From NCBI RefSeq assembly GCF_041648055.1, contig NZ_JBAZPS010000008.1:28742-92741 (forward strand): a DNA stretch of 64,000 nucleotides, read 5' to 3'. Within the stretch, counting starts at the first letter, position 1; each line of letters opens with the position of its first letter. A program made the translations under genes and the position numbers. Under the pieces are notes generated by a model, which was not told the origin of the DNA, did no database searches, and saw nothing but the letters and a program-made list of their open reading frames with translations. Below are positions 12,940 through 42,430 of this stretch, piece after piece. This DNA is from Brevundimonas sp. (lineage in GTDB: Bacteria > Pseudomonadota > Alphaproteobacteria > Caulobacterales > Caulobacteraceae).

Positions 12940-13187
12940 GCGCCGACGCCCCCGCTCCAGCCCGGCGCATTGACGAACCGGGAAACAAACCTCATATTCA
13001 CGGCACTCCAGCCACGTCGTTCCGTGGGTTCGTTACCAGCCGCAAGGCTGGCGTGGAATGAGTCTAAACAGACTTCCAAGGGCCGCCGCGAGGCGGCCCT
13101 TCTACTTTGGGCCTCGATCCGAGCGGTCAGGCCGTCGCCTTCCACCTCGTGCGTCGAGACCGGATCGGTCACGGCTCCACCAAGGGT

Positions 13188-15311: not shown

Positions 15312-15515
15312 AGTCGTGTCGGCCCGTCTTCGAGGTGTCGCCCTTCCCTCTCCAGACCAGCGCCCAGAGGGCAAGTCAAGACGACTTTCTTCGCTCCACG
15401 AGACGTCCGCGACCGCACCTGGCGCAGGCGAACGACTCTGGAACACTCGCGCAATGCGGGTATCATCGCCCCTCGTTCAAGCCGCTGGAATCACTCCGGC
15501 GGATCGGGGGAAGTC

Positions 15516-17948
15516 TTGACGGCGTTCGAAATCCAGAATGAGAACCGGAACCCGGGCTCCGCTCTTCGGAACGAGGCGGCGAACTACCTCAGCGGTCTCT
15601 ACGGAAACGGCCGCACCGAGATCCTGATCGCTGGAAAGAAGGTCGACGGCGTTTTCGAGCGAGACGACTTCGGAAGCCGCGAGACGATCATCCTTGAGGC
15701 GAAGGACTACGCGCGCCCCCTCCATCGGGACGACCTCAAAGCAATCTGGTCGGACTATGAGACGGTTCTGGATGAAGTGCGGCCGGCCAAGCTTCTGGTC
15801 ATCTCCCGTCACGGTCTGGCTCCCGGCGCACAGGCCTATCTCGATACCCGCCCGCCGATGCGGCACCGCACGATCTGGGAGCTGGAAGACGAGGTGCTGG
15901 GCCTGCGACCTCACACCCAGGCGATGGCGGCCGCCTTTGAGGAGGGCGGGCTCAGCCGGTTCTACATCGAGGCCCGAGCCGCCGAGGTCGCGTATGATGC
16001 CGACATGGCCGAATCCGAAGGCGAGGTCGTCGGTCTGATCGACGAGGTCGTGGCATGGCTGGCTACGGAAGACCCCACGCCGCTGGCGATCCTCGGCGGT
16101 TACGGGGCCGGCAAATCGAGTTTCGCCAAACGCCTCGTGACGCAGCAGGCGGCGCAGGCTCTGACGGATCCCAGCGCTCGCCGTCCGATCCTGATCAAGC
16201 TCGGCGGGCTGTCCCGCTACAGCGATCTGGAGGGCTTCCTCGGCGCGATGCTGACGAGTCAGCACAATGTCCGGGGATACAACTTCACCCGCTTCCTGGA
16301 CTTCAACAGCAAGGGCCGTTTCCTGATCGTCCTCGACGGCTTCGACGAGATGAAGCACGCGATGTCCTTCTCGGAGTTCCGCGCGCAGGTCGGTCAGTTC
16401 AATCAGCTCATCACACCGGGGGCGAAGGTGGTTCTGCTGGGCCGCCCCTCCGCATTCACCACCGACGCCGAACACCACTATGTACTGAAAGGGCGCATCC
16501 CTGCGCAGGATCGCTGGCGCAAGCTGCCGGGCTGGCCCGAGTTCAGGGAGTACCGCCTCGCCGATTTCAGCGACGCGGAGCGCGATCTCTTCATCGCCGG
16601 CTTTCTGGCCTATCAGGCCGGAACCTCGGGCGATGGGGGTGCGGATGCGGAGTGGGTCGACAAGCGTCGCCAGGAGGTGTCCGAACTCGCGGCGGCGGAC
16701 CCTGCGGTTTTCGGACGCCCCGTCCATCTGAAAATCCTCGCCGAAATGGCGGCGGACCGCGAACAGGATCTGACCCGACTGCGCCGAAGCCCGTCGCGCT
16801 GGTCGCTTTATGATGAGTTCTTTCAGTCGCTGGCGCGCCGTGAGGCCGAGAAGCCCGCCCGCACCCCCATCGGCGAGAAAGATCGACTTCGTTTCCTGGC
16901 CGAACTCGCCTTTTGGCTTTGGAGAGATCGGGCCGCAGCAACGAGCTTCGTCGCGGAGGTCATTCCATCGGACCTTCTCGCGGACTTGCCGGATGGAGAC
17001 GCGCACGAGGTCGAACACAAGCGTCGGGAGTATCTCGCCGGGGCCTTCCTGGAGCGGAAAGCCGGCGACATCTATTATTTCCCGCACCGGTCGTTCGCCG
17101 AATTCCTCGTGGCCTCCCGGATGTTGAGCTGCCCGCCGCAGGCAGGCGACCATGTCCTCTACGGGACCCTCGCGCAGGAGGGCGTTCTGGAGTTTCTCCA
17201 GACCCCCGAAAACCAGCCCCGCCTCCGCGCCTGGGCGGAAACCTTCGTCTCGGCGCAGGGCTCGCTCCGGCCGAGTTACATCCGCCTTTTGATCGATGCT
17301 TTCGGCGGACCAAACCCGCTCATCCAGCACATTCCTTCAACCTACTGGACATTGCCGATCCGACTGATCGGCGGATCGTTGAAGATCGATCCGTCGAACC
17401 TGGCGCCTCTGCGGACCGCGATGATGCAGGCTCGCGTTCCCGAGCTGGCGCTCGCACTGCAGTTGCTCGAGCCTCACGGCGTTCTCGCCTCTGAAGACAC
17501 TGTCCGTCAGGCGCTGGAGCCGATGATCGCCGGCGTCCTGATCGAACGAACCCTGGGACACGTCCGAGAGCTGCCGCAGAATGATCGGCTCTCGGTCGAT
17601 GGCGAAGAGGGCGAGCGCATGCGTGCGCTTGCGACCGCGGGGGTAAAGGAAATCGCGGCCGGCCGCACAGGGCGCGTGGTGTCCATGAACTGGCTTGGAC
17701 TGCTTGAAGGGGCCTGGGCGGCGAGCCAGGCGCACGGCGTCGTCCTCAAGACCCACGCCCCTCAACAAGCCTCGGGTTACCCACCCCTCGAACTGCCTCT
17801 CGATGTCGTGCTCTCGACGATCCCGGTGGCATCCCGCCCACGGATTCAAGGGTTTCTGCATAAGCTTTCCGACCTGCGGCACATCATCGTTGTCGCGCGC
17901 CGTAACCCGCGCACGATCGCAGCGGATCGGCCAATCCGGAGGCCCTGA
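15516..17948 (+). CDS. STAND NTPase: N-terminal Mrr-type restriction-endonuclease-fold domain + NACHT ATPase + helical C-terminal region
   Basis: 810 aa; TTG start 5 nt after GGGGGA; VDGVFER...IILEAKDY (D..ExK); Walker A GGYGAGKSSF; Walker B FLIVLDGFDEM typical of NACHT. Confidence 0.8.
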   Translation: MTAFEIQNENRNPGSALRNEAANYLSGLYGNGRTEILIAGKKVDGVFERDDFGSRETIILEAKDYARPLHRDDLKAIWSDYETVLDEVRPAKLLVISRHGLAPGAQAYLDTRPPMRHRTIWELEDEVLGLRPHTQAMAAAFEEGGLSRFYIEARAAEVAYDADMAESEGEVVGLIDEVVAWLATEDPTPLAILGGYGAGKSSFAKRLVTQQAAQALTDPSARRPILIKLGGLSRYSDLEGFLGAMLTSQHNVRGYNFTRFLDFNSKGRFLIVLDGFDEMKHAMSFSEFRAQVGQFNQLITPGAKVVLLGRPSAFTTDAEHHYVLKGRIPAQDRWRKLPGWPEFREYRLADFSDAERDLFIAGFLAYQAGTSGDGGADAEWVDKRRQEVSELAAADPAVFGRPVHLKILAEMAADREQDLTRLRRSPSRWSLYDEFFQSLARREAEKPARTPIGEKDRLRFLAELAFWLWRDRAAATSFVAEVIPSDLLADLPDGDAHEVEHKRREYLAGAFLERKAGDIYYFPHRSFAEFLVASRMLSCPPQAGDHVLYGTLAQEGVLEFLQTPENQPRLRAWAETFVSAQGSLRPSYIRLLIDAFGGPNPLIQHIPSTYWTLPIRLIGGSLKIDPSNLAPLRTAMMQARVPELALALQLLEPHGVLASEDTVRQALEPMIAGVLIERTLGHVRELPQNDRLSVDGEEGERMRALATAGVKEIAAGRTGRVVSMNWLGLLEGAWAASQAHGVVLKTHAPQQASGYPPLELPLDVVLSTIPVASRPRIQGFLHKLSDLRHIIVVARRNPRTIAADRPIRRP

Positions 17949-18130
17949 ATTCCGCTCGCGCGAAGCCCTTCCCGGCGTCGTGCGGCGCGGTTGTGCAGGC
18001 GACGCGCGATCATCGGAGAATGGCCGACCGAGGCCGTGGGTGCGTGGTGAGGTGACGTGGGCGCCGAACGTTTGCACCTGATCGACGGACCGGGACCGCC
18101 GACAGGAGCGGCGCGCCGCCCAGCCGTCAC

Positions 18131-18973
18131 TCAAAAGGGCGAGAGCGCCAGGTCGACCCTCTCGATCAGGGCCCGAAAGAGTTCAGCCGTTTCGGTCACA
18201 TAGGCTTTGGTGAAGACCGTCAGCTTCTCGTTGTTCTTGTCGCGGCCGTTTCGATGGACGCAGTCGTGACGATGCTGAATCGCGACAAACAGCTTCTCCC
18301 TCTGTGTTTGCTCCTTGAGGAGTTCGACCTCCAGAGCGATCCGGTACAGCGTGTCGACCTTCGCGAGGTTGTGGTAGCGGATGTCGGCCAGATAGGCCCC
18401 GACCCTGTCTCGGATCAGGCCGGGATTTTCCTGGATCTCCGCCAGGGTGAACCTTTCCTTCGCCAGTTCCTTGTCGCCGGCGAGAAGCCGCCCCAGACGC
18501 TTCTCGTCGCCCAGCACTTCCTTGAGAAGCGTGTCGCCGAGGAAGGCTTCGAGAGCCGCAACGTGCTGAGAGAAGACCATCCGATTGATCAGGGCGCCGC
18601 CGTCGTCCGAGCCGTGGGCATCGAGATAGGCCTGCGCCTGCTCGAACGACTCCGCCCAGATTGAGAGCGGGTTTTCCGGGAGAGCGTAGTCGGACCAATC
18701 CTCCTCGGGAGAGTAGAAGGCGACATCCGCCGAAACCGCCGTCTCAGGATGGGCGTTGAGCCTGACCTCGCAACTGCCTGCGCTGTTCACGACATAGGCC
18801 TCAAAGACGGTTTCGCAGTGGGGGCATTCGACCTCGGTTTCGCCCTCGGAGTTCAGGTCCGACATGCTTTCGGCTGCGCTCCAGTCCGGCTCGGGCACCT
18901 CCGCGCTCGTGACCGCCAGGGCGTGGCAATCCGGGCATGTGAACTGGATCTGCGTCTCGAAACGTTGGGTCAT
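18131..18973 (-). CDS. zinc-ribbon + HEPN-like (Rx4H) domain protein
   Basis: 280 aa; CPDC ... CPHC pair in first 65 aa; C-terminal helical domain with IQHRHDCVHRNG (R-x4-H). Confidence 0.5.
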   Translation of the reverse strand: MTQRFETQIQFTCPDCHALAVTSAEVPEPDWSAAESMSDLNSEGETEVECPHCETVFEAYVVNSAGSCEVRLNAHPETAVSADVAFYSPEEDWSDYALPENPLSIWAESFEQAQAYLDAHGSDDGGALINRMVFSQHVAALEAFLGDTLLKEVLGDEKRLGRLLAGDKELAKERFTLAEIQENPGLIRDRVGAYLADIRYHNLAKVDTLYRIALEVELLKEQTQREKLFVAIQHRHDCVHRNGRDKNNEKLTVFTKAYVTETAELFRALIERVDLALSPF

Positions 18974-19295: not shown

Positions 19296-19898
19296 ATGCA
19301 GACTTCCGAACCACGAGACCCCTATGGAGCGGCTCTGGGTGCTCTAAAGCGGTTCGCCGAGGCGGGCCGGTTTGTTCCGGGCGAGCCGATCGTGGTGACG
19401 GAGCTGGCGGCGGAGGTGGGATTGAGCGCCACGCCGGTCCGGGAAGCCCTGGCCTGTCTCGCGGGACAAGGGCTCATCGAGCGCAGACGCGGACGCGGCT
19501 ACTTCTACCCGTCGCTGAGCCCGGCGGAGATCATCGACCTGTTCGAACTCCAGCTCGCCTATCTCCACGCCGCGCTGACCCTCTACCCCCGCGGGCTCAC
19601 ACCTTTGCGCAAGGCGGCCGTTGCGGTCGATCCGCTCGACGGCGTTCAGGCCCTTTTCGACGCGATCATCAACCAGTCGACCAACGCCGCGCTTGTGCTG
19701 GCCCATCAACGTGTCGTCGACCGGCTCAAGGCCGTTCTCAAGGCCGAGCGCATCCATGAAGAAACTGACGGCGCGACCGTAAGGACCATGGTGGAGGTGA
19801 TCGTCGACGGGCGGATCCCGGCGCTCCTGGGTCTGCTGGAATCCTATCACGAGCGCCGCTGCTCACGCACAACGATCCTGGTGATCGAGGCCGCCTGA
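19296..19898 (+). CDS. GntR-family transcriptional regulator
   Basis: 200 aa; wHTH VTELAAEVGLSATPVREALACLAGQGLIERRRGRGYF. Confidence 0.8.
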   Translation: MQTSEPRDPYGAALGALKRFAEAGRFVPGEPIVVTELAAEVGLSATPVREALACLAGQGLIERRRGRGYFYPSLSPAEIIDLFELQLAYLHAALTLYPRGLTPLRKAAVAVDPLDGVQALFDAIINQSTNAALVLAHQRVVDRLKAVLKAERIHEETDGATVRTMVEVIVDGRIPALLGLLESYHERRCSRTTILVIEAA

Positions 19899-19903: not shown

Positions 19904-20554
19904 TCACTCCGTCCCACTTCGCGCCACCTCTTCCCGAGGCCCGACGCCGGCGAAGACCAGAGCGGCCAGTGCGCCAGCCGCCCCGATGCGCCGGTCATGG
20001 TAGCGCCCGACGGTCGCAGCGAACGCGGGCGCGGCCTCCTCATTGTAGGCGGTATAGAGCCCTATCGCCTCGTCACAGAGATCGTCAAACAGGGTCGCCT
20101 CATGGCGGCGCACCAGATCGAGCTGTCCGCTCACCTTCTGAAATCCGTCCCACAAGGCCTGATTGCCGGCGCTGCAGACGATGGTCGCGAACAGCCGGTT
20201 CACGGCCGCTATGGGACGACCGTGTTCGTAAGCGGGCGCCGGCGGACGCACGGCTCCGAGGGCGCGCAGGTTCACCTCGACGGCGATGCGGACGTAGTGG
20301 CCATGCATCGCCCAACGGTCACGGGCTGCGGTGGCGTCCAGCCGCAGGGTGACATAACCGCCGGTCGACGCACGCTCGACCAGTCCTTCTCCGCTCAGCC
20401 GAGCAAGAGCCTCTCGGATCGGCGTGGTCGACAGGCGCAGCCGCCGGGCCTCGTCCTGAACAATGACCGGCGACCCGCCGGCCAGGGCTCCCGAATGAAT
20501 ACGCTCACGCAAAGACGACAGCGCCTGGGTGAACGGGTCGCGATTACGCGCCAT
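19904..20554 (-). CDS. GntR-family transcriptional regulator
   Basis: Start set at ATG 20554 (MARNRDPF); wHTH EARRLRLSTTPIREALARLSGEGLVERASTGGY; upstream part of the 468-aa track ORF is low-complexity. Confidence 0.8.
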   Translation of the reverse strand: MARNRDPFTQALSSLRERIHSGALAGGSPVIVQDEARRLRLSTTPIREALARLSGEGLVERASTGGYVTLRLDATAARDRWAMHGHYVRIAVEVNLRALGAVRPPAPAYEHGRPIAAVNRLFATIVCSAGNQALWDGFQKVSGQLDLVRRHEATLFDDLCDEAIGLYTAYNEEAAPAFAATVGRYHDRRIGAAGALAALVFAGVGPREEVARSGTE

Positions 20555-20800: not shown

Positions 20801-21289
20801 ATGCTTTCCGATCCACCAGAAAAGTTGAGTGATGCACGGCTGATCGGTCTGGCGGCGCGGACGGTGCGGCGTGCCCGAAACATGACCGCCCAGCAGGTGG
20901 CGACCGCCATGAACCTGCCGCTTCGCACCTACGAATACTTTGAAGCCGGCGCTGGCCGGGTGAACCTCGACTACGTTCACCGGTTCGCCGTCGCGACGAA
21001 CTGCGACCCGTGGTCGCTCTTGCTCGGCCCTTCGCTCGGCTCGATCGAGTTCGCGCGTCAGACGGCTGACAGCAAGCTCATGCTGATCTTCCTCATCGCC
21101 CTGGGCGAGTTCGTCCGGAAGATGGGAGACCGGCTTTTGACGCTCGATCCCCGCGCCCTGATCGAGGCCTTCACCGAGACCTTCCGCAAGCTGGAGGAAG
21201 AGAACCGGGCCAAGAGCGAGGAAACCGAGTCCTGGCTCGACGCGGGCCGCGACCGTCTGGCGGGCAAACCGCCGGAAGATGAGGTCTGA
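20801..21289 (+). CDS. XRE-family helix-turn-helix regulator
   Basis: 162 aa; RRARNMTAQQVATAMNLPLRTYEYFEAG HTH_3-like. Confidence 0.75.
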   Translation: MLSDPPEKLSDARLIGLAARTVRRARNMTAQQVATAMNLPLRTYEYFEAGAGRVNLDYVHRFAVATNCDPWSLLLGPSLGSIEFARQTADSKLMLIFLIALGEFVRKMGDRLLTLDPRALIEAFTETFRKLEEENRAKSEETESWLDAGRDRLAGKPPEDEV

Positions 21290-21302: not shown

Positions 21303-21326
21303 AAATACACGACAGATATAGATTGC
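21303..21326 (+). promoter_or_regulatory. conserved 24-nt element AAATACACGACAGATATAGATTGC, copy 1, 91 nt upstream of precursor A1
   Basis: Identical 24-mer at 21632-21655, the same 91-nt distance from the A2 ATG; A/T-rich in a GC-rich context. Confidence 0.45.
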
Positions 21327-21393
21327 CGCTGGGGTCACCGCGGGCGCTCCATGACCTGCCGCAATCCGCGGCGACTTGCGAATGGAGGCTACC

Positions 21394-21513
21394 ATGACCA
21401 GCACCGTTCAGATCCGACTGATCGGCTTCGGACCCGTCACCGCCCTCACCCGGGGCGCCATCGTCGGGCCGCCGCTGGAGATCGAAGAGACGCCGTTCGA
21501 CGGCGTGGCCTGA
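21394..21513 (+). CDS. lasso peptide precursor A1 (39 aa)
   Basis: Hand translation MTSTVQIRLIGFGPVTALTRGAIVGPPLEIEETPFDGVA; GGAGG 5 nt upstream; Thr at -2, Gly1 and Glu9 of putative core; directly upstream of B/C genes. Confidence 0.8.
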   Translation: MTSTVQIRLIGFGPVTALTRGAIVGPPLEIEETPFDGVA

Positions 21514-21521
21514 TCGCCCGG

Positions 21522-21547
21522 GACGAGCGTCGTTCGCGGCGCTCGTC
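21522..21547 (+). terminator. stem-loop after precursor A1 (possible attenuator)
   Basis: GACGAGCG (21522-21529) pairs with CGCTCGTC (21540-21547), 10-nt loop; no long U tract. Confidence 0.45.
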
Positions 21548-21631
21548 TTGCCCCACATTGAGGATGACCGGTCGCCCGACAGCCGTCGCGGCGACGTTTG
21601 TGCATTCGCTCCTGTCCGATCGACAAGGCTC

Positions 21632-21655
21632 AAATACACGACAGATATAGATTGC
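21632..21655 (+). promoter_or_regulatory. conserved 24-nt element, copy 2, 91 nt upstream of precursor A2
   Basis: Identical to 21303-21326. Confidence 0.45.
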
Positions 21656-21722
21656 GACCGCCGGCTTCGGAGCGGCTCCATAGGCTGCCGCAATCCTGCG
21701 GCCTCACAACCTGGAGGCTCTC

Positions 21723-21842
21723 ATGACTGGCATCGCTCAGATCCGACTGATCGACCTCGGTCCCGTCACTGTTCTGACGAGGGGCGCGGTGATCGGCCCG
21801 CCCCTCGAACACGAGGAAATGCCGTACGACGGCGGGGCCTGA
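21723..21842 (+). CDS. lasso peptide precursor A2 (39 aa)
   Basis: Hand translation MTGIAQIRLIDLGPVTVLTRGAVIGPPLEHEEMPYDGGA; GGAGG 5 nt upstream; same leader/core logic as A1. Confidence 0.8.
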   Translation: MTGIAQIRLIDLGPVTVLTRGAVIGPPLEHEEMPYDGGA

Positions 21843-21849
21843 CGGCCTC

Positions 21850-21881
21850 GGGGACGAACGCCTTTTGCGGCGCTCGTCCCC
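21850..21881 (+). terminator. stem-loop between precursor A2 and the B gene (possible attenuator)
   Basis: GGGGACGA (21850-21857) pairs with TCGTCCCC (21874-21881); inner CGCC/GGCG pairing; TTTTGC loop. Confidence 0.45.
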
Positions 21882-21901
21882 AGCCGCCGCGCGCGTGCCT
21901 C

Positions 21902-22588
21902 ATGGAGAACCAGACCTTCGATTCCCCCACGCCCTTCGTCGCCGAGCCGGGGAGCGCTCTCGCCCACCTTTGGGAGCATCTGCATTTTGCTGTCGTCGAT
22001 GAAGACGTCATTGTGCTCGATGAACGGACGGACGCTTACAGCTGCCTGCCCGGCGCCGGAACGGTGATACAAGTCCGTGGCGACCTTATCGTCGCCCCCG
22101 AACCCGTGCTGGAGCAACTTCGGGACGGCGGGTTTCTCGGCCCCTCGGGTGAGACCCGGGCCGTCGCGCCGCCGGCGCCGACCCGAGCCCTTCCCCTGCC
22201 GCCGTCGCCTGCGATCGATGTGGTTGCGACCACGCGGTTCTGGTGGTCCTGGTGGCGCGAGGGACGGAATTTCGAATCCCGATCCCTCGCGAGTCTGCTC
22301 GCCACGCACCGCCGGCGCTCCCCCTCCTCGAGCCTGTCCGAAGAGGAGGTCGCCCGTCTGACGGCGGCCTTCGTGCGCCTCCTGCCTTGGGCGCCGGGAC
22401 AGGGCGCCTGCCTCTACCGGGCGCACCTGCTGAGGACCTTGATCCGGGACGCAGGCGGAGACGTGCGATGGGTGTTCGGGGTTCGCACCTGGCCATTTTC
22501 CGCCCACTGCTGGCTGCAGGTCGGCGACGCGGTGCTCGACGACGAGCCGGACCGGGTCGCCGTCTACACCCCGATCATGGTCGTCTGA
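21902..22588 (+). CDS. lasso peptide maturation protein B (PqqD-like RRE fused to transglutaminase-like Cys protease)
   Basis: Start at ATG 21902 (MENQTFD); N-terminal FAVVDEDVIVLDERTDAYSCL (PqqD-like); C-terminal GACLYRAH ... FSAHCWLQVGDAVLDDEPD (Cys/His/Asp); the track ORF start 21548 reads through A2 in another frame. Confidence 0.85.
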   Translation: MENQTFDSPTPFVAEPGSALAHLWEHLHFAVVDEDVIVLDERTDAYSCLPGAGTVIQVRGDLIVAPEPVLEQLRDGGFLGPSGETRAVAPPAPTRALPLPPSPAIDVVATTRFWWSWWREGRNFESRSLASLLATHRRRSPSSSLSEEEVARLTAAFVRLLPWAPGQGACLYRAHLLRTLIRDAGGDVRWVFGVRTWPFSAHCWLQVGDAVLDDEPDRVAVYTPIMVV

Positions 22589-22589: not shown

Positions 22590-24350
22590 GTGGGGCATTT
22601 TCTGCATCTCGCCTGGTCCGACACCAGCAACCTTGCTCTCGCCGAAGGCCTTGTGGCTGAAGCCCAGGCCCGAGGGTTTGTCCCGGTCCAGGTCATGGAG
22701 CAGGCGTGGCTCGGCACGAAGGGGCCGAGGCCCCTGGCGGTCCACCATCCCGCCGGCGAGCATCTGCTCGTCCTCGGCGACCTGTTCGATGCCCTCGACG
22801 GGGATCGAACCCCTATCCCGACGCACGGCGACGACGCCGACCGCGCACGCGCCCTGATCCGGCGGTACTGGGGGCGGTACATCGGGATGTTCAGGACGCC
22901 GCGAGGCCAGGTCCGCCAGATCCTGCGGGACCCTTCCGGCGCCCATGAATGCGCGGCCTGGCGGTACGAAGGTGTCCAGGTCGTCACCTCCGAACTCTCC
23001 GACTGGCTGCTGGAAAGCGCCGCGCCGCCGGTCCAGATCGACTGGGACGTGGTGGGCGGTCTGCTGCGCGACCCCATCAATGCGACCGCGGCCAGTCCGT
23101 TGATCGGGATCAGGGTCGCCGAGGCCGGCGACCTGACCGATCTCAACGCCCGGCGAACGACTCCGCTGTGGCGTCCGGTAGACTTCACCGCCTCGGTCAC
23201 CTCCGATCCCCGCGAAGCCGCAGCCTGGCTGAGAGGCCGGATCGACGGCTGCCTCGCCGCCTTCGCCAAGGTCATCGAACGGCCGGGCGTCGAAGTGTCC
23301 GGCGGGCTCGATTCTGCGATTGTCGCCGGCGGCTTTCAGGCTGGGGGAGCGACCCCGCACCTCTGGTTCAACATGTTCGGCCCGTTCGCCGAAGGCGACG
23401 AGCGTCGGTTCGTTCGAACCCTCGGAGATCGCCTCGGCTTCGAACCGCACTGCGTTCAACGCGCGATCAGGCCGATGACGACGGAAGGGTTCGAGGTCAC
23501 CGCTCGAGGTCCCAGACCCGGAGTGAATGGAAGAGATTACTCGTTCGACACGGCCGTCGCGGAAGCCTGCCGGGAGGCCGGCGTCGACGCCCTCCTGACC
23601 GGGAAGGGTGGCGACGGGGTCTTCTTCCAGATGGGGGTTCCGGACATCTTCACCGACGTCCTTCGCGAGCGGGGTCTCGGCGCTGTGTTCAGCCCCGCAC
23701 TACCGCAACTGGCGCGGTGGACACGCCGATCGACCTGGTCCCTTCTGCGCACCGCCCTGAGCACACCGCGACGCGCTCCGCTCGACCGGTCGGCACGCAG
23801 ACTGTCCATCTTCAATCCGGAGAGCGTTTCGCACGATGCAGAAAGGGATCTGCATCCGTGGCTACGCGGGCTGGAAACGGTCCCGCCGGCCAAACGTCTC
23901 CAGATCGAATCCGTGGCGGCGGGCCTGGCCTATCAGAGCCAGTGCCGCCGAACGGAGGCTGCCGACCTGATCCATCCGCTTCTGGCTCAGCCCGTTGTCG
24001 AACTGGCGCTCGGACTGTCCGTTCCCCTCCTCACCGACGACGGTCGGGCCGATCGAAGGCTGGCGCGCGCGGCCTTCGCCGACAGACTGCCGCCCGAAAT
24101 CCTGCACAGGCGATCCAAGGGTGAGATGACCGCCTACTTCGGGCGCCAGGCGGCCGCGAGCATTCCGTTCCTGAGAGACCACCTGCTCGGGGGTCGCCTC
24201 GCTGCGCGCGGACTTATCGACCGGGGTCGTACGGAAGCCCTCCTCGACCCTGACCGTCTGCTCTGGAAAGGCAGCGTCCCGGACTTCACGATGGCGGCAG
24301 TGATGGAGAGCTGGGTCCGGCGCTGGGAGGCGATCGGGGCTGGGGTCTGA
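22590..24350 (+). CDS. lasso peptide cyclase C (asparagine synthetase B-like)
   Basis: 586 aa; PP-loop VEVSGGLDSAIVAG; position immediately after B. Confidence 0.88.
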   Translation: MGHFLHLAWSDTSNLALAEGLVAEAQARGFVPVQVMEQAWLGTKGPRPLAVHHPAGEHLLVLGDLFDALDGDRTPIPTHGDDADRARALIRRYWGRYIGMFRTPRGQVRQILRDPSGAHECAAWRYEGVQVVTSELSDWLLESAAPPVQIDWDVVGGLLRDPINATAASPLIGIRVAEAGDLTDLNARRTTPLWRPVDFTASVTSDPREAAAWLRGRIDGCLAAFAKVIERPGVEVSGGLDSAIVAGGFQAGGATPHLWFNMFGPFAEGDERRFVRTLGDRLGFEPHCVQRAIRPMTTEGFEVTARGPRPGVNGRDYSFDTAVAEACREAGVDALLTGKGGDGVFFQMGVPDIFTDVLRERGLGAVFSPALPQLARWTRRSTWSLLRTALSTPRRAPLDRSARRLSIFNPESVSHDAERDLHPWLRGLETVPPAKRLQIESVAAGLAYQSQCRRTEAADLIHPLLAQPVVELALGLSVPLLTDDGRADRRLARAAFADRLPPEILHRRSKGEMTAYFGRQAAASIPFLRDHLLGGRLAARGLIDRGRTEALLDPDRLLWKGSVPDFTMAAVMESWVRRWEAIGAGV

Positions 24351-26889
24351 GTACCGGCGGGACCTCGCCCGAGCTGAGGGTGCGGTCGAGGAAGGCCACG
24401 ATCTCCGTGTAAAGATCCCGGATATTGTCCGGGCTCCAGAGGTGATGGCCCTCGCCCCAGTAGGTGAGAAGCCGTGCATCCTTGTTCTGTCGCCAGAGCG
24501 CCGAGAACATGATCTCGGACTGGGTGCTCGGCAGAAGATCGCGGTCACCGTGGACGAGAAGAACCGGTGCCGAGATCCGGTCCGCGCCGAACAGGGGACT
24601 GTTCCGGACATAGAGGTCAGGCGCGGTCCAGGGCGGCGCGCGCATTCGCCCCTGGCTTTCCTCGGCCCATCCGATGCGCTGGCGCAAGGAGAGTCCGAAC
24701 TCCGGATTGTCCCGGTTGGCGGGAGAAAACTCGCCCCAGGCGGTCGCAAGATCTGACAGGCCCGCAACGGAGATGATGGCCTTGAACCGGTCCGTCTGCG
24801 TGGCGGCGACCAACCCAGCATAGCCGCCGAAACTGTGTCCCCAGTGCGCGACGCGGTCCGGATCCAGATCCGGGTACTGCGCGAGGGCGGCGTCGACCAC
24901 CGCCAGGACATCCTCAGCGTAGTCCTCCGCGGGCTCCTTCTCCCGGTCGAGAGGCACGATCGGGATCAGCACTGCATATCCGCCGGAGACGACAAGCTGG
25001 GGGTTGGCCCAGGCGTTGAGCGCGGCGGGTTCCGACGGCGCGGCCGCAGGGCCGCCTGGGTAGGAGAGAACGACCAGAGGCGTCTTCTCCCCCCGCCACT
25101 GCCGGGGGCGATAGAGCCAACTGAACCGCTCTACGCCGTCCGCCCCCCGATGGCGGACCCGTTCGGGCTCGGGGAAGTCGATCTCTCCCATCCATGCGTT
25201 GATCATCGACAGTGTCCGGTCGGGGCGACCCGGCTGCTGAAGGCGCAAGGTCTGGACCCCGTTTTCCACGGTGCGGACGATGACGCCGTCGGCGCCGGCG
25301 TAGACGCCGGAGACGAAGGCGTCGCCCGTCGCCATCACGTCAGGATCGAGGTCCGGGCGGGCGATCGCACCATCGGACAGGCGCACCGCCATCCAGCCCC
25401 GCCGGGGTGGAGAGTTCCGCTGGCGTCGCTGCGACTCCAGATAGCCTGCGCCGTCGAAGCCGGTCACGACGCCGGTCGGAGCGACCATCGGCGCGGCTTC
25501 GCCAGAGACGGTCACGGCCCAAGGGCGGCCTCCGGCGACCAGCAATAGCCGCTCCCCGTCGATGGCCCCGATGTCGACGGACGGCGGACTGAGCGCCGCC
25601 GTCAGGTTGACGGCGCCCTGGCGTCCGAGCCGGTGCCAGTCGTTGCGCTCGCCCGTCGCGGTGTGGGCGAAGAGGACAGGCCAGTCTCCCAGCCAGTCCG
25701 CATAGACGCTGTTGAATGTGGCCACCCCGCCGCCGGTGTAGGGCCTGAGACCGCCGAGATCGTAGCGCTGCACGGCGTCACCGTCCGGGTCGACGCCGAG
25801 AAGGTCGCCGGCCTCCCATCCTTCGGCGCCGCGCGCCCACACCAGCAGACGATCCGAGGCCGGCGACCAGGCCAGCAGGCTCGGGGCGATATCGGCGTCG
25901 CCCAGCGGCGAGGTCACGGCGCCCGTCCGCAGGTCGGCAATGCGAAGCCTTCGCTCCCGATCAATGGCCTGCGGCTCGAACGCTGTTGTCGGGTCGAAGG
26001 TCGCCGCCGTGGCGGTCTCGACCAGCGCCAGGCGATCTCCGTCCGGGGAGAGTTCGAGGTCGTAGAACCAGCCTGCGGCGAGCGGGGTGGCGATGCCTGA
26101 ACGAACGTCGAGTCTGACCGCCTGGTTCTGCGGAGGCTGGGGCATGTCGCCGGCGAAGGCGCCGCTGCCGAGGGAGGTCCGCTGCGCCGGTCCACCGGCG
26201 TCCGTCGCACGCCAGCGCGCCTCGAGCGCTCGCCTGCCTCGCGCACCGCTGGCCAACCATTGCGGCAACGATCCATCGGGTCTCACCAGCAGCAGGAGCT
26301 CGTCGTCCGAACGCCATTGCGCCGCCTCCCCGAAGACAGAGAGCTCCGGCGACAGGGAAAACCAGTGGACCGTCCGATCCGACATTTCCACGACCCCGGC
26401 CTGCCACCGGTGATCTCTGAGACGGAAGATCAGGAGTCTGCGCCCGGACGGCGACCAGGGCCCCAGGACGTGGCCGTCTCTCTCCTCCGGCCGAAGGAGG
26501 CTCTCAGCAGGCCGGCCCGAGGCCAGATCCACCACTTTCAGACGGCTCACGGTCCATGGGTTGCGGAGACCGAACTCGAACGACGTCGCCTGGTCGTAGG
26601 GCGCGCGTTGTTCAAACACCGCCCACCGCCCCGTCGGATCGATGGTGGCGTTGCCGAAGGACTCCGCCGCGAGCATGTCATCCGTGCGATAGGGACGACC
26701 CGGTGTTGCGGGCGAGGGAGATCCGGTGGCGACCTCAACTCCCGCCGGAGCGTTCTGTGGGATCTGCGCGGCAGCACCCCATCCCGCGCCCGACAGTAGG
26801 ATGAAGGCCGAGGCGGCGACAAATGCGCGCGAACGCGCGCGGCGTCCTGCGGACGCCGTCTGGCGTACGCTCGAAGCAGCTCGGGGCAT
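24286..26889 (-). CDS. S9 prolyl-oligopeptidase-family serine peptidase, lasso-peptide isopeptidase-like by context
   Basis: 867 aa; signal peptide; beta-propeller-like N-half; HWGHSFGGYAG nucleophile elbow, HGDRDLL, GEGHHLW; 3' end overlaps the cyclase 3' end by 65 nt. Confidence 0.8.
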   Translation of the reverse strand: MPRAASSVRQTASAGRRARSRAFVAASAFILLSGAGWGAAAQIPQNAPAGVEVATGSPSPATPGRPYRTDDMLAAESFGNATIDPTGRWAVFEQRAPYDQATSFEFGLRNPWTVSRLKVVDLASGRPAESLLRPEERDGHVLGPWSPSGRRLLIFRLRDHRWQAGVVEMSDRTVHWFSLSPELSVFGEAAQWRSDDELLLLVRPDGSLPQWLASGARGRRALEARWRATDAGGPAQRTSLGSGAFAGDMPQPPQNQAVRLDVRSGIATPLAAGWFYDLELSPDGDRLALVETATAATFDPTTAFEPQAIDRERRLRIADLRTGAVTSPLGDADIAPSLLAWSPASDRLLVWARGAEGWEAGDLLGVDPDGDAVQRYDLGGLRPYTGGGVATFNSVYADWLGDWPVLFAHTATGERNDWHRLGRQGAVNLTAALSPPSVDIGAIDGERLLLVAGGRPWAVTVSGEAAPMVAPTGVVTGFDGAGYLESQRRQRNSPPRRGWMAVRLSDGAIARPDLDPDVMATGDAFVSGVYAGADGVIVRTVENGVQTLRLQQPGRPDRTLSMINAWMGEIDFPEPERVRHRGADGVERFSWLYRPRQWRGEKTPLVVLSYPGGPAAAPSEPAALNAWANPQLVVSGGYAVLIPIVPLDREKEPAEDYAEDVLAVVDAALAQYPDLDPDRVAHWGHSFGGYAGLVAATQTDRFKAIISVAGLSDLATAWGEFSPANRDNPEFGLSLRQRIGWAEESQGRMRAPPWTAPDLYVRNSPLFGADRISAPVLLVHGDRDLLPSTQSEIMFSALWRQNKDARLLTYWGEGHHLWSPDNIRDLYTEIVAFLDRTLSSGEVPPVLRPQPRSPPSAGPSSPSLPPS

Positions 26890-26895: not shown

Positions 26896-29847
26896 CTACC
26901 AGCGCTTGATCAGCTGGAACGCCGCGACCCGGCCAAGCGGACCCGCCTGCCCCGGATCGAAGCCGAAGCCTTGCGGGGAGTCATAGAAGGGCGGGTCCGC
27001 GTCGAAGACGTTCTGGATCGTCAGGGCCACCTCGACGCCCTCGGCCAATCCGGTTCCGACCCCCGCCCAGCGCAGCTGAAGATCGGCGGTCGTGAAGGCG
27101 TCGATGGTCCGCCCCGCCGCGTCGCGGTAGTCGGCGGCATGGTTGACGCCGATCCGCGTCGACCAGTCCCCGCGCGTCCAGGTTGCGGCGGCCTGGGCGC
27201 GGAGATCGACGGGGAAGCCCACCAACCCGAGAACGTCCTCGCGAACGGCCACCGGGGTCACCCGACGGCTGTAGTCCAGCAGGTAGGATGCCGAGAGGGA
27301 GAGACCGAAAGCGTTGTCTCCTACGTCGAAGTCGTAGCTGCCCGCCAGATCGATCCCCTCGACGTTCAGTTCGCCGGTGTTGGCCCATCGGCCGTCGAGG
27401 ATCACCGAGTAGGACGACGCCGGATAAAGGGTTGGCGAGACGAAGCGCGGGTCGGCGAGGAAAGCCTGGACGCGAGCCAGATCGGCCGCATTCCCGGGCG
27501 TGAGACGGGTGACGAACGGCGACAGGCTCGGATCGACGAGGATGCTGGTGATGTTCTCCAGCGCCGGTCGACCGATCTTGTTCTCGAAACGGATGTCAAA
27601 ATAGCCCGCGCTGAACCGCATGCCGGGCCGGGGCGCCCATTCGACCCCGAGGGTGAGGCTATCGGCCGTTTCCGGTTCGAGGTCGGTATTCCCGCCGGAC
27701 TGCAGGATCGCCACGCGGCTGACCCCGGAGTCGGACACGGTCAGGGGACCGAGCTGGACCCGATCGAAGACTTCGGTGAGGGCGGGGGCGCGAAAGGACG
27801 TCCCCCAGCTGGCGCGAACCGTGAACGGGTCCGAGGGCTGCCAGATCAGGCCGATCTTGGGATTGGAGGTCGTGCCGACGTCGTCATAGTCCTCGGCGCG
27901 CCCCGCCAGGGTAAGCTCCAGACGCTTGATCCCGGGCATTGCATTGGCCTCGCCCACCAGCGGCGCCCGCACCTCCATGAAGACGGCGCCGATGTCGCGG
28001 ACCTGGGGGTCGCCGATGGTGATGACCGGAGCCACGCCCGAAGCGAAGTTCTGGCTGCGACGGTTGAACTCCTCGCGCCGGAACGACGCGCCGATCGCAA
28101 TCCGGAGGTCCCCGCCCGGCAGTCTCAGGGGTGAGCCGTCCAGCATCAGATTGGCGGAGCTGATACGGCTGCGGTAGCGGGACCAGGTGTAGCCCTGCGA
28201 GATAAAATCCAGAACCGCGTCGCCGTTGGCCCCGCCCGACCCGAAGGGATTGAAGTATCCGTCCCGGGCTGCGTTGTAGGAGGTCGCCGGATTGTCGACG
28301 GCGTTGCCCAGCGCTTCGGCGAGGAAGGTGCTGTTAAGCTGGTTGTTCGTGCCGCCTTCGCTGAGCTCCTCGGCGAAGGCGCCGTAGGCTTCCAGCGTCC
28401 AGTCCCTCGGCAGCGCGATCTCGATCCCGGCGGTCCCGCCGAGGCTGCGCGACATGCCGTAGCTCTCGGTCGGACCGAGGTCGCCGATGAAATTGTAGGC
28501 GATCAGGTGGGAGGCCGAACCGGTCGGCGATACGAAGAAGGGGTTGTTGCGTCCGATGGTGAGAATGCTCACGGGCGCGAGGTTGGCGTATTCGAACGTC
28601 CGCCGGCTGAAGCGGGCGTCGGCGGACACTTCGATGTGCGAACCGAGGTCTTGGCGGACGCTCGCATAAGCGCTGTGGCGCTCCTGGAGCGGGAGGATGT
28701 CGACGTCGGCCCGCCGGTTGCCGAGGTTGGCGCCGCCTGCCTCGAAGTCCGACGGCGTGCGCGCCGTGCCGTCGGGACCGGGTCGGATCGCATAGGTGCT
28801 GCGATAGGCGCCGCGAGACGCGTCGAACACAACGATGCTGCCGGGCGGCCCGTAGAAGCTGCGGCGATCCGTGCCGCCCCAGGGCCTCAGATCGCCGGTG
28901 GCGGTGTAGTCGCGGTCCGCCGAGTTGAGCGCCGATTGATGCTGATACTCGTAGGACAGGAGCGCCGAGCCGGTCTCCCACCGCGTCCCGAACAGGTGGG
29001 ACGCCAGCAGGTCCTCGCCCCCGCCTTGCGCCGCAGAGGCGCGCAGCCGGGTTTCCTGACCCTCATAGCTCCGCCGCAGGATGACGTTCACCACGCCGGC
29101 CACCGCGTCAGATCCATACAGGGCCGAGGCGCCGTCGAGCAGCACGTCCACGCGCTCGACCGCTCCACCCGGGATCGCCGAGACATCGGCGAACTCCCCC
29201 TTCATTCCGGTCCCCGCCAGGCGCCGCCCATTGACCAGAACGAGCGTCGCGTCCGCCCCGAGCCCTCGGAGGTTCACGCCCGTCGCCGTCGAGGTGTTGC
29301 TTCCTAGCGAGTCGGCGCCCAGCAGCAGGCTGTTGGGTGTCGCGTTGCCCGAATAGGACTGAGGCAGCCGAACGAGGGCGTCGGCGACCGTGGCGTCGCC
29401 GCGCCGGTCGAGGTCCGAGCGCGAGATCACGGTCACGGGGGACGGCGATTCCCCGGGGCCTCTCAAAAGCGTCCCAGTGACGACAACCTCGTCGATGACG
29501 GTGGCGTCGTCGGTCGCCGCCTGCTGCGCCGAAGCCCGGCGCAGAACTATCACGCCCGGCCGACTGCGCGACCAGACGACGCCGCTTCCGGCGAGCAGGC
29601 GATCCAGCGCCGTGTCCGGCGCATGCCGTCCGCTCAGTCCCGGTGTCCGAAGGCCGGCCACGAGGTCGGCGGTATAGAGCATCTGCACATTGGCCTGCCG
29701 GGCGTAGGCGATGAGCGCCGCGTCCAGCGAGCCGCTGGAAATATTGAACTCGCGGGCCTCTTGGGCCTGCACGTCGGTGGCGAAGGCCACGGCGGCGATG
29801 GGCACGAGCGCGACGCCGGCAAGCAGGCTTCGGGTGCAGATGGTCAT
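26896..29847 (-). CDS. TonB-dependent receptor with N-terminal STN signalling domain (FecA-type transducer)
   Basis: 983 aa; signal peptide, FNISSGSLDAALIAYARQANVQMLY STN domain, plug, beta-barrel ending ...AAFQLIKRW. Confidence 0.92.
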   Translation of the reverse strand: MTICTRSLLAGVALVPIAAVAFATDVQAQEAREFNISSGSLDAALIAYARQANVQMLYTADLVAGLRTPGLSGRHAPDTALDRLLAGSGVVWSRSRPGVIVLRRASAQQAATDDATVIDEVVVTGTLLRGPGESPSPVTVISRSDLDRRGDATVADALVRLPQSYSGNATPNSLLLGADSLGSNTSTATGVNLRGLGADATLVLVNGRRLAGTGMKGEFADVSAIPGGAVERVDVLLDGASALYGSDAVAGVVNVILRRSYEGQETRLRASAAQGGGEDLLASHLFGTRWETGSALLSYEYQHQSALNSADRDYTATGDLRPWGGTDRRSFYGPPGSIVVFDASRGAYRSTYAIRPGPDGTARTPSDFEAGGANLGNRRADVDILPLQERHSAYASVRQDLGSHIEVSADARFSRRTFEYANLAPVSILTIGRNNPFFVSPTGSASHLIAYNFIGDLGPTESYGMSRSLGGTAGIEIALPRDWTLEAYGAFAEELSEGGTNNQLNSTFLAEALGNAVDNPATSYNAARDGYFNPFGSGGANGDAVLDFISQGYTWSRYRSRISSANLMLDGSPLRLPGGDLRIAIGASFRREEFNRRSQNFASGVAPVITIGDPQVRDIGAVFMEVRAPLVGEANAMPGIKRLELTLAGRAEDYDDVGTTSNPKIGLIWQPSDPFTVRASWGTSFRAPALTEVFDRVQLGPLTVSDSGVSRVAILQSGGNTDLEPETADSLTLGVEWAPRPGMRFSAGYFDIRFENKIGRPALENITSILVDPSLSPFVTRLTPGNAADLARVQAFLADPRFVSPTLYPASSYSVILDGRWANTGELNVEGIDLAGSYDFDVGDNAFGLSLSASYLLDYSRRVTPVAVREDVLGLVGFPVDLRAQAAATWTRGDWSTRIGVNHAADYRDAAGRTIDAFTTADLQLRWAGVGTGLAEGVEVALTIQNVFDADPPFYDSPQGFGFDPGQAGPLGRVAAFQLIKRW

Positions 29848-29929: not shown

Positions 29930-30925
29930 TTATCCGCCGACGGATCGCGCGGTGAGGCGGACGCCGCCGTCGGCCTGCGGCTGGGCGGTCAGACCGAAGA
30001 GATCCGAGACGGCCGCGACGAAGGCGTCCCTGTCACCCGTGGCGAAGGAGCCGTTGACCGCGACCTCCGATGCAGGCCCGGCCGCCAGGACAATCTTGTC
30101 CGGAAGGTAGCGATTGACCTCGGCGACGGCGTCGCGCAGCGGCGTGCCCCGGAAGACCAGGTGACCCTGCGACCAACTCGTCTCGACCGTCGCATCGACA
30201 GCAACCGGCGCAGGGTCACGACGCGATGTCTGGACCTGTTGCCCCGGGGTCAGGCGCCAGTTGCGGGTCTCGGCCTGGACATCGGTGACCGCGACCGATC
30301 CCTCGACGAGGGTCACACGCGCCCCGGTGGATTCGCGCCGGACGTCGAAGACGGTGCCCAGGGCCGTGACCTCCGTGCCCCCGGCCTCGACCCTGAAGGG
30401 GCGGGTCGCATCGTGGGCGACGGTGAACAACGCCTGACCCTGTTCGAGCACGATCCGCCGTTCGCCAGAGGCGAACCGCACCCTGATCCGCGTGTCCGTA
30501 TCCAGCCGGACCTGGGTCCCGTCGTCGAGCGCGACGACCCGTTGGCCGCCGATCTCCGTTTCGTACAGGCCTCGCGTGGGCAACCAGAAGACCAGCGCTA
30601 GCGCCAGGGCGGCCACGGGGACGAGGACGACCGCGACCGGGAAGAGCCGTCTGGACCATTCGCGTTTCGTCCTTGGCCTTGAGGTCCGCAAGGTGGCCTG
30701 GGTCAGGTTCTGGATGTCGCCATCCGACGAGAGGGATCCCGTGCTCCGCCAAAGACGCTCGACCTTGTGATAGGCCTCCACGTTGCCAGCGGTCTCGCGC
30801 CACGTCTTGAACGCATGGAGCGTGTCGGCGGACACGGGGCGTTCCCCGAGTCGGACATGCCACTCGACCGCTTCACGGTCCGCAACGCCTGTCGCGCTCT
30901 GCGGGTCGCTCATGGCGTTCCCCAT
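29930..30925 (-). CDS. FecR-family anti-sigma/transmembrane sensor
   Basis: 331 aa; EAVEWHVRL ... FKTWRE N-terminal pattern, central TM helix, FecR periplasmic domain. Confidence 0.85.
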   Translation of the reverse strand: MGNAMSDPQSATGVADREAVEWHVRLGERPVSADTLHAFKTWRETAGNVEAYHKVERLWRSTGSLSSDGDIQNLTQATLRTSRPRTKREWSRRLFPVAVVLVPVAALALALVFWLPTRGLYETEIGGQRVVALDDGTQVRLDTDTRIRVRFASGERRIVLEQGQALFTVAHDATRPFRVEAGGTEVTALGTVFDVRRESTGARVTLVEGSVAVTDVQAETRNWRLTPGQQVQTSRRDPAPVAVDATVETSWSQGHLVFRGTPLRDAVAEVNRYLPDKIVLAAGPASEVAVNGSFATGDRDAFVAAVSDLFGLTAQPQADGGVRLTARSVGG

Positions 30926-30928: not shown

Positions 30929-31429
30929 CTACAGCCGCAACTGGGCTGCGCAGTACTCGAGCGCCTTGATCATCCGCCATTGGACCGTGGTCACGGGGAT
31001 GTTCAGCCGCTCGCCTATCTCTTGATACTCCAGATGCGCGAAACGGCTCAAGACGAACACGTCCCTTAGTCGGGGCGGCATCGTCATAACGATCTGCTTG
31101 AGAAGGACCATGTCGATCTGAGAGGCGGGATCCACGAGCGGATCAGGGTCCAGCCGATCGTTGGCCCCGAGAGGCGCTGGCCCCCGCCGCCTGGCCTTAT
31201 CAATGATCAGGTTGTCGACGATCTTCAAAAGCAGCGCCTTGGGATGCTCGATCAGACCCTTGCGACTGTATGGCGCGGCCCGGATCCAGGCCTCCTGGGC
31301 GAGGTCCTCGGTTTCGTCGCCGAAGCGCTGCCTCAGCCGCGCCGTGAGCCAACCGGAATAGGCGCGATAGAGATCGTGAAGGCCGTGATCGGCCTCCTTG
31401 TCTCCCACACCTCCAGTTCGATCCGACAC
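30929..31429 (-). CDS. ECF (FecI-type) RNA polymerase sigma factor
   Basis: Start set at GTG 31429 (GGAGG 7 nt upstream); sigma-70 region 2 (DLAQEAWIR) and region 4 (EIGERLNIPVTTVQWRM); longer track start 31558 possible. Confidence 0.85.
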   Translation of the reverse strand: MSDRTGGVGDKEADHGLHDLYRAYSGWLTARLRQRFGDETEDLAQEAWIRAAPYSRKGLIEHPKALLLKIVDNLIIDKARRRGPAPLGANDRLDPDPLVDPASQIDMVLLKQIVMTMPPRLRDVFVLSRFAHLEYQEIGERLNIPVTTVQWRMIKALEYCAAQLRL

Positions 31430-33756: not shown

Positions 33757-33818
33757 GGGTCGTCTCTCCCTACCTAGGATTCACGCCCAGGGCGCACGGG
33801 GAGGGACTATTCGGCGGG

Positions 33819-37871: not shown

Positions 37872-37889
37872 GATGCCAGCCGAGCGTGA

Positions 37890-42345: not shown

Positions 42346-42430
42346 CAGCCCGGCGATCGCGTTCCCGCCATGGACGGCGCTCGGCCGTGTTCCTACAGTT
42401 GCCCCACCTGAATGTTCGGAAGGTCACGCA

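Follow-up and report, generated by a model that had tools for sequence, protein, structure and literature searches.

A tandem pair of predicted lasso peptide precursor genes in an isopeptidase-type cluster of Brevundimonas

In a 64-kb stretch of DNA from Brevundimonas sp. (the window; all coordinates are window positions), two tandem open reading frames (ORFs) of 39 codons each, A1 and A2, lie directly ahead of genes for a fused leader peptidase (B) and an asparagine synthetase-like cyclase (C). We consider it highly probable that the two ORFs are paralogues, each encoding the precursor of a class II lasso peptide that this B/C pair processes. The encoded products are very probably two new, strongly acidic lasso peptides within a well-known type of cluster. 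The argument is carried by purifying selection acting in exactly the A1/A2 frame, by a precursor pattern shared with distant lasso clusters and by the enzymes and architecture of the surrounding genes.

Two conserved small genes and their predicted cores

A preliminary description of this DNA had reported the two ORFs with a GGAGG Shine-Dalgarno sequence exactly 5 nt before each ATG; the translations match exactly, and both ribosome-binding sites are in place (Table 1). Lasso leaders carry a Thr at position −2, and the LTR-G junction of each ORF provides Thr(−2) together with a Gly at core position 1. In both cores Glu9 is the sole acidic residue within positions 7–9, the remaining acids being E11, E12, and D16. 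Thr(−2), Gly1, and Glu9 had likewise been read correctly beforehand, as had the aromatic Phe15/Tyr15, a position that proved to be invariantly aromatic in the family alignment presented below. Both cores are free of Cys, which separates class II from classes I, III, and IV. Net charge is about −4, with an additional His in A2, and the predicted lasso forms would have monoisotopic masses of 1891.957 (A1) and 1919.872 (A2). In all six frames of the window, a regular expression for the leader motif matched the A1 and A2 sites only. An alternative ATG of A1 at 21382 would give a 43-amino acid (aa) form; because this codon overlaps the Shine-Dalgarno site and has no counterpart in A2, we take the 39-aa product as the conserved form.

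Scanning GTDB species genomes with the C protein yielded four further Brevundimonas loci (L001–L004: UBA5936, B. huaxiensis, a metagenome-assembled genome, and B. vancanneytii as L004), with C identities of 92–63%. Both small ORFs occur in tandem at the equivalent position in all four. Codon-wise comparison revealed purifying selection on the A1/A2 frame, the ratio of nonsynonymous to synonymous differences (pN/pS) being about 0.08–0.35. For example, A1 of the window differs from its B. huaxiensis counterpart with a pS of 0.152 and a pN of 0.012, and A2 from that of B. vancanneytii with a pS of 0.645 and a pN of 0.151; the corresponding values between A1 and A2 inside the window are 0.455 and 0.159. 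GC content at third codon positions is 0.88 and 0.78 in the two ORFs, compared with ~0.8 in neighbouring genes. The only competing frame would extend B upstream across A2; in the window it stays open over 160 codons, but over no more than 11 in L001 and 73 in L002. The choice between frames, which the preliminary description had left to related loci, thus falls to the small ORFs, which are kept in L001–L004, and not to the extension of B. Judged by conservation and codon pattern, A1 and A2 are real genes.

The exact A1 and A2 peptides are found on 210 and 185 public contigs, respectively. In databases both ORFs bear the label "hypothetical protein", as in Brevundimonas aurantiaca (MBB5741465.1 and MBB5741466.1). 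One RefSeq protein, WP_156494706.1, has B modelled as 364 aa across A2 (21548–22588, + strand); because conservation of this extension across species is lacking, the model is probably a misannotation by which A2 is concealed. Copies, exact or nearly so, of A1, B, C, and the neighbouring S9 peptidase (GAA0203816.1, GAA0203824.1, GAA0203834.1, and GAA0203844.1) were also encountered on a 495-kb contig of Actinomadura yumaensis, an assembly that is probably contaminated with Brevundimonas DNA.

Precursor variants in protein collections follow a common pattern, in which the leader ends in IRLIxLGPVTxLT[RKQ] and the core reads GA[IVL][IV]GPPLEx[ED][EF][TM]P[FY][DNS]G.. onwards. Residues G1, A2, P6, P7, E9, and P14 are invariant in the alignment of this family, position 15 is always F or Y, and Thr(−2) is almost invariant. 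Core positions 11 and 12 vary among the variants (D, G, V, F), which leaves Glu9 as the only conserved acid, situated in the ring window of positions 7–9. By definition, a lasso precursor has a small first core residue and closes its ring on an Asp or Glu at position 7, 8, or 9 (PMC9266682). When 1.84 billion representative proteins were searched exhaustively by HMMER with the precursor profile, only about five true relatives emerged; the family is therefore confined to a narrow Brevundimonas clade, and a link to a named family cannot be obtained by sequence. Similarity at the level of the leader reaches further. The motif RL[IV]xLGxxxxLT[RK] and a junction of LT[RK] with G or A recur in the precursors of three more distant clusters, in Phenylobacterium (L005), B. 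diminuta SCAU 5 (L006), and a genome labelled Caulobacter segnis (L007), in which the B/C enzymes are only 34–40% identical to those of the window. A precursor of the Caulobacter locus, for instance, consists of the leader MTKTRKLRLVRLGDAKALTR followed by the core GEWGPGDELVTMRRPQP, and the second B. diminuta cluster holds three precursors that share the leader motif and have Ala-first cores. The common motif and junction in such distant clusters support the predicted cleavage site.

A1 and A2 each reside in a tandem duplicated unit of ~329 bp, in which the 39-codon ORF is accompanied by an upstream AT-rich box, a small leader hairpin, a strong ribosome-binding site, and a stable hairpin devoid of a U-tract. 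The AT-rich box begins each unit, 68 nt ahead of the precursor ATG, and in four species it is kept in front of both genes; with up to 3 mismatches allowed, the window contains no copies other than these two, and 0 would be expected by chance. The box probably serves as a promoter, or else as an operator at which the neighbouring GntR or XRE regulators would act. A leader hairpin of the type GCCGCAATC..GCGGC also precedes the first precursor of the Caulobacter locus L007 (about 15170–15186, − strand). We also considered RNA structure in the 5′ leader, including an anti-Shine-Dalgarno pairing of CUCCAU with AUGGAG, and do not claim it: covariation is absent and fold z-scores are −0.3 to −0.7. 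Conservation of the hairpins downstream of the genes extends over eight copies, and 5 of 14 pairs show compensatory changes. Lasso clusters are known to use hairpins between A and B as a feature of their expression, and removal of one has served to improve astexin-1 expression (PMC7549694); here, they probably keep precursor mRNA above the level of B/C mRNA. Rfam returned no matches over 19–32 kb, and scans for consensus sigma-70 promoters and intrinsic terminators in 21.1–22.0 kb were empty.

Processing enzymes and cluster architecture

The B protein matches the lasso_biosyn_B2 family NF033537 with 73 bits (cutoff 33) and the transglutaminase-like family PF13471 with 79 bits (cutoff 26), and its putative catalytic residues Cys170, His202, and Asp214 are invariant in 46 homologues. 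An AlphaFold2 model (predicted local distance difference test score, pLDDT, of 91) renders the N-terminal ~70 residues confidently as mostly beta, and D35, L39, D40, and Y46 of this domain are conserved. A Foldseek search with the model retrieved TbiB1 only at a non-significant E value of 0.3. The preliminary description had seen in B a Cys/His/Asp protease joined to a PqqD-like recognition element (RRE); the protease is borne out by both family matches and the invariant triad, and the RRE is taken up among the counterarguments below. C had been described as an asparagine synthetase-like cyclase with an SGGLDS motif, and this holds: PF00733 is matched with 77.6 bits (cutoff 21), and the motif occupies residues 237–242 (23298–23315). 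With its counterpart in the Caulobacter locus L007, C shares 34% identity. Sequence searches of the PDB with B and C gave zero matches.

Clusters of the isopeptidase type have been described as nearly constant in composition, with a GntR regulator, A, B, C, an isopeptidase, a TonB-dependent transporter, and a sigma/anti-sigma factor pair; those of the astexins and caulosegnins belong here, and what such clusters do biologically has been called enigmatic (PMC9266682). In the window, GntR genes likewise come before the precursors, and an S9 peptidase gene beside C is followed by genes for a TonB-dependent receptor and a FecR/FecI pair, with no ABC (ATP-binding cassette) exporter. The operon fecI-fecR-TonB receptor(STN)-S9 converges on C. 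By gene content, the A1/A2 cluster is an isopeptidase-type alpha-proteobacterial lasso cluster of the astexin/caulosegnin archetype, the class to which the preliminary description had assigned it and to which the flanking GntR regulators and the S9/TonB receptor/FecR/FecI operon now point as well. Clusters of this kind are routinely found by standard genome mining for peptides that are made on ribosomes and modified after translation (RiPPs). The order of the 11 genes from GntR1 to FecI (Table 1) is kept in L001–L003 and, in L004, up to S9, where the contig ends, and the general layout of the module recurs in Phenylobacterium, in the second B. diminuta cluster, and in the Caulobacter genome.

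The layout departs from the archetype in the XRE-like gene between the GntR genes and A1 and in the placement of one GntR gene on the opposite strand. The XRE-like gene, which is outside the published archetype as given in PMC9266682, has two Pfam matches that are both sub-threshold, a GC3 of 0.82, and 78–90% identity in L001–L004; homologues also lie beside the L006 and L007 clusters. The second GntR regulator uses an internal start within a 468-aa ORF, is 65–87% identical in L001–L004, and is 34% identical to the GntR protein adjoining the L007 precursors.

Table 1. Positions of the features of the cluster and of selected flanking genes in the 64-kb window.
Feature	Position	Strand	Properties
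NACHT + Mrr_cat protein	15516–17948		
GntR-family regulator 1 (GntR1)	19296–19898	+	200 aa; PF00392 4.3e-13; syntenic in L001–L004
GntR-family regulator 2 (GntR2)	19904–20554	−	216 aa; PF00392 3.3e-9 on the 216-aa form
XRE-like helix-turn-helix (HTH) protein	20801–21289	+	162 aa; directly 5′ of A1; HTH_31 24.8 bits (cutoff 27), HTH_3 19.1 bits
AT-rich box, copy 1	21303–21326	+	5′ of A1; perfect 24-nt copy of AAATACACGACAGATATAGATTGC
5′-leader hairpin before A1	21358–21372	+	GCCGC-AATCC-GCGGC; conserved in 8 aligned copies
Shine-Dalgarno sequence of A1	21384–21388	+	GGAGG; ATG 5 nt downstream; invariant in 8 aligned copies
A1 precursor	21394–21513	+	Predicted leader MTSTVQIRLIGFGPVTALTR, predicted core GAIVGPPLEIEETPFDGVA; translation MTSTVQIRLIGFGPVTALTRGAIVGPPLEIEETPFDGVA, then stop
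Stable hairpin 3′ of A1	21519–21550	+	14-bp stem, no U-tract; −23.9 kcal/mol, z −3.2
AT-rich box, copy 2	21632–21655	+	5′ of A2; perfect 24-nt copy of AAATACACGACAGATATAGATTGC
5′-leader hairpin before A2	21687–21702	+	GCCGC-AATCCT-GCGGC; conserved in aligned copies
Shine-Dalgarno sequence of A2	21713–21717	+	GGAGG; ATG 5 nt downstream
A2 precursor	21723–21842	+	Predicted leader MTGIAQIRLIDLGPVTVLTR, predicted core GAVIGPPLEHEEMPYDGGA; translation MTGIAQIRLIDLGPVTVLTRGAVIGPPLEHEEMPYDGGA, then stop
Stable hairpin 3′ of A2, before B	21850–21881	+	−31.1 kcal/mol, z −3.0; no U-tract
B, fused leader peptidase	21902–22588	+	228 aa; N-terminal beta-rich domain and C-terminal Cys170/His202/Asp214 protease
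C, Asn-synthetase-like lasso cyclase	22590–24350	+	586 aa; PF00733 1.8e-21
Secreted S9 serine peptidase, in isopeptidase position	24286–26889	−	867 aa; PF00326 7.5e-26; Ser686/Asp784/His815
TonB-dependent receptor	26896–29847	−	983 aa; N-terminal STN signalling domain 1.5e-11, Plug 5.8e-19, beta-barrel 9e-37
FecR-type anti-sigma factor	29930–30925	−	331 aa; PF04773 2.4e-22; DUF4880
FecI-type extracytoplasmic function (ECF) sigma factor	30929–31558	−	209 aa or fewer; Sigma70_r2, r4_2; TIGR02937 51 bits (cutoff 42.9)
DUF5677 protein	32893–33756		
HTH protein	33747–37871		1374 aa; weak PD-Lambda-4_A match
Nucleotidyltransferase-HEPN protein	37890–38813		

Several points weigh against the assignment of A1 and A2 as lasso precursors served by this module. 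Neither precursor reaches the cutoff of a curated precursor family: A1 is without any match, and A2 has sub-threshold matches to benenodin (NF033522, 16.2 bits, cutoff 33) and subterisin (PF24178, 17.1 bits, cutoff 27) that are confined to the leader/core junction. A PqqD/RRE signal in B was not found by Pfam up to an E value of 10, by PDB profile search, or by Foldseek. C stays far under the NCBIfam cutoffs for lasso and macrolactam cyclases (28 vs. 525 and 64 vs. 300 bits), and its subfamily is therefore not a curated one. The module has no exporter gene, none of its genes being an ABC transporter, which leaves export of the peptides without explanation. The S9 peptidase scores 41.4 bits on the Atxe2 equivalog NF033523 (cutoff 400), with the match limited to the catalytic domain; among solved structures, those of S9 carboxypeptidases and acylaminoacyl peptidases come nearest to it. 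Finally, the whole case is computational, and both products are predictions.

From the sequences, conservation, selection, domains, and catalytic residues described above, we infer the following scheme for cleavage, ring closure, threading, regulation, and uptake, in which the enzymatic steps follow knowledge of the protein families. Fused B would bind the leader via RL[IV]xLGxxxxLT[RK], and its Cys170/His202/Asp214 protease would cleave after Arg(−1). C would adenylate the side chain of Glu9 and link it to the amine of Gly1 around the pre-threaded tail. The predicted products are 19-mers that combine a Gly1-Glu9 ring of 9 residues with an acidic loop (IEETP or HEEMP) and a 4-residue tail, and in which Phe15/Tyr15, invariantly aromatic, would be the main plug. 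The fecI-fecR-TonB receptor(STN)-S9 operon most likely senses the peptide and re-imports it into the periplasm, where the secreted S9 peptidase, judging from the position of its gene, would hydrolyse it as AtxE2 does for astexins.

The S9 peptidase and competing explanations

The S9 gene starts 6 nt past the stop codon of the TonB-dependent receptor, and its product has an N-terminal signal peptide, MPRAASSVRQTASAGRRARSRAFVAASAFILLSGAGWGAAAQ, and a conserved triad (GHS686FGG, D784, and H815). The structural model (pLDDT 84) combines a beta-propeller with an alpha/beta-hydrolase and aligns full-length to two-domain S9 peptidases. Both the fold and the triad are common to all S9 peptidases, and they do not discriminate for Atxe2 because of this. 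Numerous database entries for S9 start 71 codons late (796 aa; the skipped part corresponds to 26677–26889, − strand) and thereby lose the signal peptide. Proteins of this lineage measure 810–890 aa, with a signal peptide in all three N-termini read.

The low score on NF033523 is a trait of the lineage. Among the five relatives from other genomes that were scored (P0212, P0218, P0223, P0236, and P0247), four reach 48–70 bits and the fifth is without a match. A phmmer search of the PDB with S9 did not find AtxE2 even at E values up to 10. With a family profile, the S9 carboxypeptidase 8wt1 was matched at an E value of 3e-40, and AtxE2 (5txc) came seventh at 1.6e-16, over the catalytic domain only. 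The 50 best Foldseek matches comprised carboxypeptidases (8wt1 at 4e-35), acylaminoacyl peptidases, and DPP4s, with AtxE2 absent. On these comparisons the S9 peptidase is outside the Atxe2 family, and since family membership fails, an isopeptidase role would follow from the position of its gene. The lineage adjoins lasso B/C genes in at least seven loci of three genera (Brevundimonas, Phenylobacterium, and Caulobacter) and may represent a second family of lasso-associated peptidases distinct from AtxE2.

The same data bear on the strongest of the competing explanations, namely that lasso peptides are made but S9 is not an isopeptidase. As a periplasmic carboxypeptidase or oligopeptidase, it could instead trim the C-terminal tail, or it could degrade linear or unthreaded peptides imported via the TonB-dependent receptor. 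Its best sequence and fold matches, to the carboxypeptidase 8wt1 and to acylaminoacyl peptidases, and the weak equivalog scores throughout the lineage speak for such a role. However, the gene occupies the atxE2-type position in a nearly constant published architecture (PMC9266682), the lineage recurs next to lasso B/C genes in the three genera, and NF033523 is still the top NCBIfam match for most of its members. We regard this explanation as possible, though doubtful.

A second explanation accepts translation of the ORFs but not a threaded Gly1-Glu9 lasso as the product; Glu11 or Glu12 could provide the ring closure, or the peptide could be branched-cyclic and unthreaded. The acids E11, E12, and D16 lie just beyond the ring window, and a 9-residue ring requires a bulky plug, for which only a single aromatic residue, F15/Y15, is available. 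Moreover, caulosegnin III, the nearest known core, also has a 9-residue ring and is heat-labile (PMC13352647). Nevertheless, known lasso rings close on an Asp or Glu at positions 7–9 (PMC9266682), Glu9 stays the same in every variant of the family while positions 11 and 12 differ, and Pro14 and the aromatic residue at position 15 are conserved. We hold a product other than a threaded Gly1-Glu9 lasso to be very unlikely. That the small ORFs are no lasso precursors at all, and instead non-coding, upstream ORFs with a regulatory role, or by-products of the duplication of a regulatory region before B, would fit their annotation as hypothetical proteins, the RefSeq model of B that spans A2, the unmet curated thresholds, and the conserved non-coding elements of the duplicated unit, but it is scarcely credible in view of purifying selection in exactly their frame, the invariant Thr(−2)/Gly1/Glu9 pattern and leader motif common to precursors of distant lasso clusters, the unconserved extension of B, and the lack of any other precursor candidate beside an intact B/C pair.

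Relation to known lasso peptides and genomic setting

The cores of A1 and A2 appear in no searchable paper, and on lasso clusters of Brevundimonas the searchable papers hold nothing beyond brevunsin. Of 31 listed lasso peptides, caulosegnin III (GALVGLLLEDITVARYDPM) comes closest; it is identical to A1 in 8 of 19 positions and to A2 in 7 of 19. The caulosegnins I–III of Caulobacter segnis (Hegemann et al. 2013, cited in PMC13352647 and PMC9266682) resemble the predicted peptides in having several precursors per single B/C pair, 19-residue Gly-first cores, Glu-closed rings of 8 or 9 residues, an origin in the order Caulobacterales, and a cluster of the isopeptidase type (PMC9266682). They differ in core sequence (identity at most 42%) and in the number of precursors, which is three as opposed to two here. 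In contrast to the caulosegnins, A1 and A2 have strongly acidic loops (EIEE/EHEE; net charge about −4) devoid of basic residues, a separate copy of the upstream box belongs to each precursor, and the region upstream contains an XRE-like gene and a second GntR gene.

In architecture, the cluster of astexin-2 and astexin-3 with AtxE2 in Asticcacaulis excentricus (Maksimov and Link 2013) is similar: according to the summary in PMC9266682, it likewise comprises two tandem precursors, a fused B, C, an S9/prolyl oligopeptidase (POP)-type peptidase, a TonB-dependent transporter, a sigma/anti-sigma pair, and an upstream GntR regulator, with an ABC exporter absent. Astexins, however, have 24-residue cores with Asp9 rings, and the likeness of AtxE2 to the S9 peptidase is limited to the catalytic domain, S9 being ~160 residues longer than the 705-residue AtxE2 chain in the PDB. 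Brevunsin from Brevundimonas diminuta (Kodani et al. 2018; core GDMGEEVIEGLVRDSLYPPAG, PMC12427821) shares the genus and is also a class II lasso peptide of an alpha-proteobacterium, but its core is unrelated. Identity with brevunsin was rejected on account of this different core, and a brevunsin-like sequence is absent from the window and from L001–L006. The three distant clusters L005–L007 share architecture, S9 lineage (33–37% identical over about 800 residues), and leader motif with the module, whereas their cores are unrelated (e.g., GEFGQGDELITHKLRVA, or Ala-first cores) and their B/C enzymes distant. What is mildly new in the Brevundimonas cluster is the acidic chemistry of the loops, the duplication of self-contained precursor units, and a secreted S9 lineage that is not Atxe2.

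Elsewhere in the window, Trb-type conjugation genes (SLT, TrbI, TrbL, and TrbE/VirB4) lie at 46549–55102 (− strand), a sign that part of an integrative conjugative element may fall within the window, and the Caulobacter L007 cluster abuts genes typical of integrative conjugative elements (SLT, Peptidase_S26, DUF2840, ParA, RPA, and HTH_17). Based on these two observations, the lasso module may ride on an integrative conjugative element. The 12.3-kb module has no megablast match among PLSDB plasmids, and the window contains no tRNA genes as island borders. Cargo-like, possibly defence-related genes flank the module at 12118–18973 and 31647–44148 (Table 1). Large ORFs in these regions, including 13188–15446 and 38941–42345, are without Pfam or PADLOC matches, and PADLOC gave nothing solid on the neighbouring large ORFs. 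The NACHT protein and the ORF at 18131–18973, the two flanking genes that were compared, are absent from L001–L004. Further upstream (6791–11588, + strand) are genes for two multi-haem cytochrome c proteins and a heavy-metal P-type ATPase with an HMA domain, which seem unrelated to the lasso module.

The analysis exposes faults in current annotations, in which the precursors are "hypothetical", B is over-extended in one RefSeq model, and S9 is often 71 codons short. If expressed, A1 and A2 would enlarge the set of roughly 60–70 characterised scaffolds by two class II lasso peptides whose loops are unusually acidic, and would do so in a genus for which brevunsin is so far the one described lasso peptide. 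With two substrates, an STN-type TonB receptor, a FecIR pair, and a secreted S9 peptidase, the module offers a compact and conserved system for the hypothesis of uptake, signalling, and linearisation. A more far-reaching and rather unlikely idea is that the acidic peptides act as secreted cargo carriers or signals, for a metal cation for instance. The STN receptor would recognise the peptides and switch on the FecI-type sigma factor, with the non-AtxE2 S9 peptidase then opening them in the periplasm. If true, this would reveal the long-sought role of isopeptidase-type clusters, together with a second, independent family of lasso-opening enzymes.

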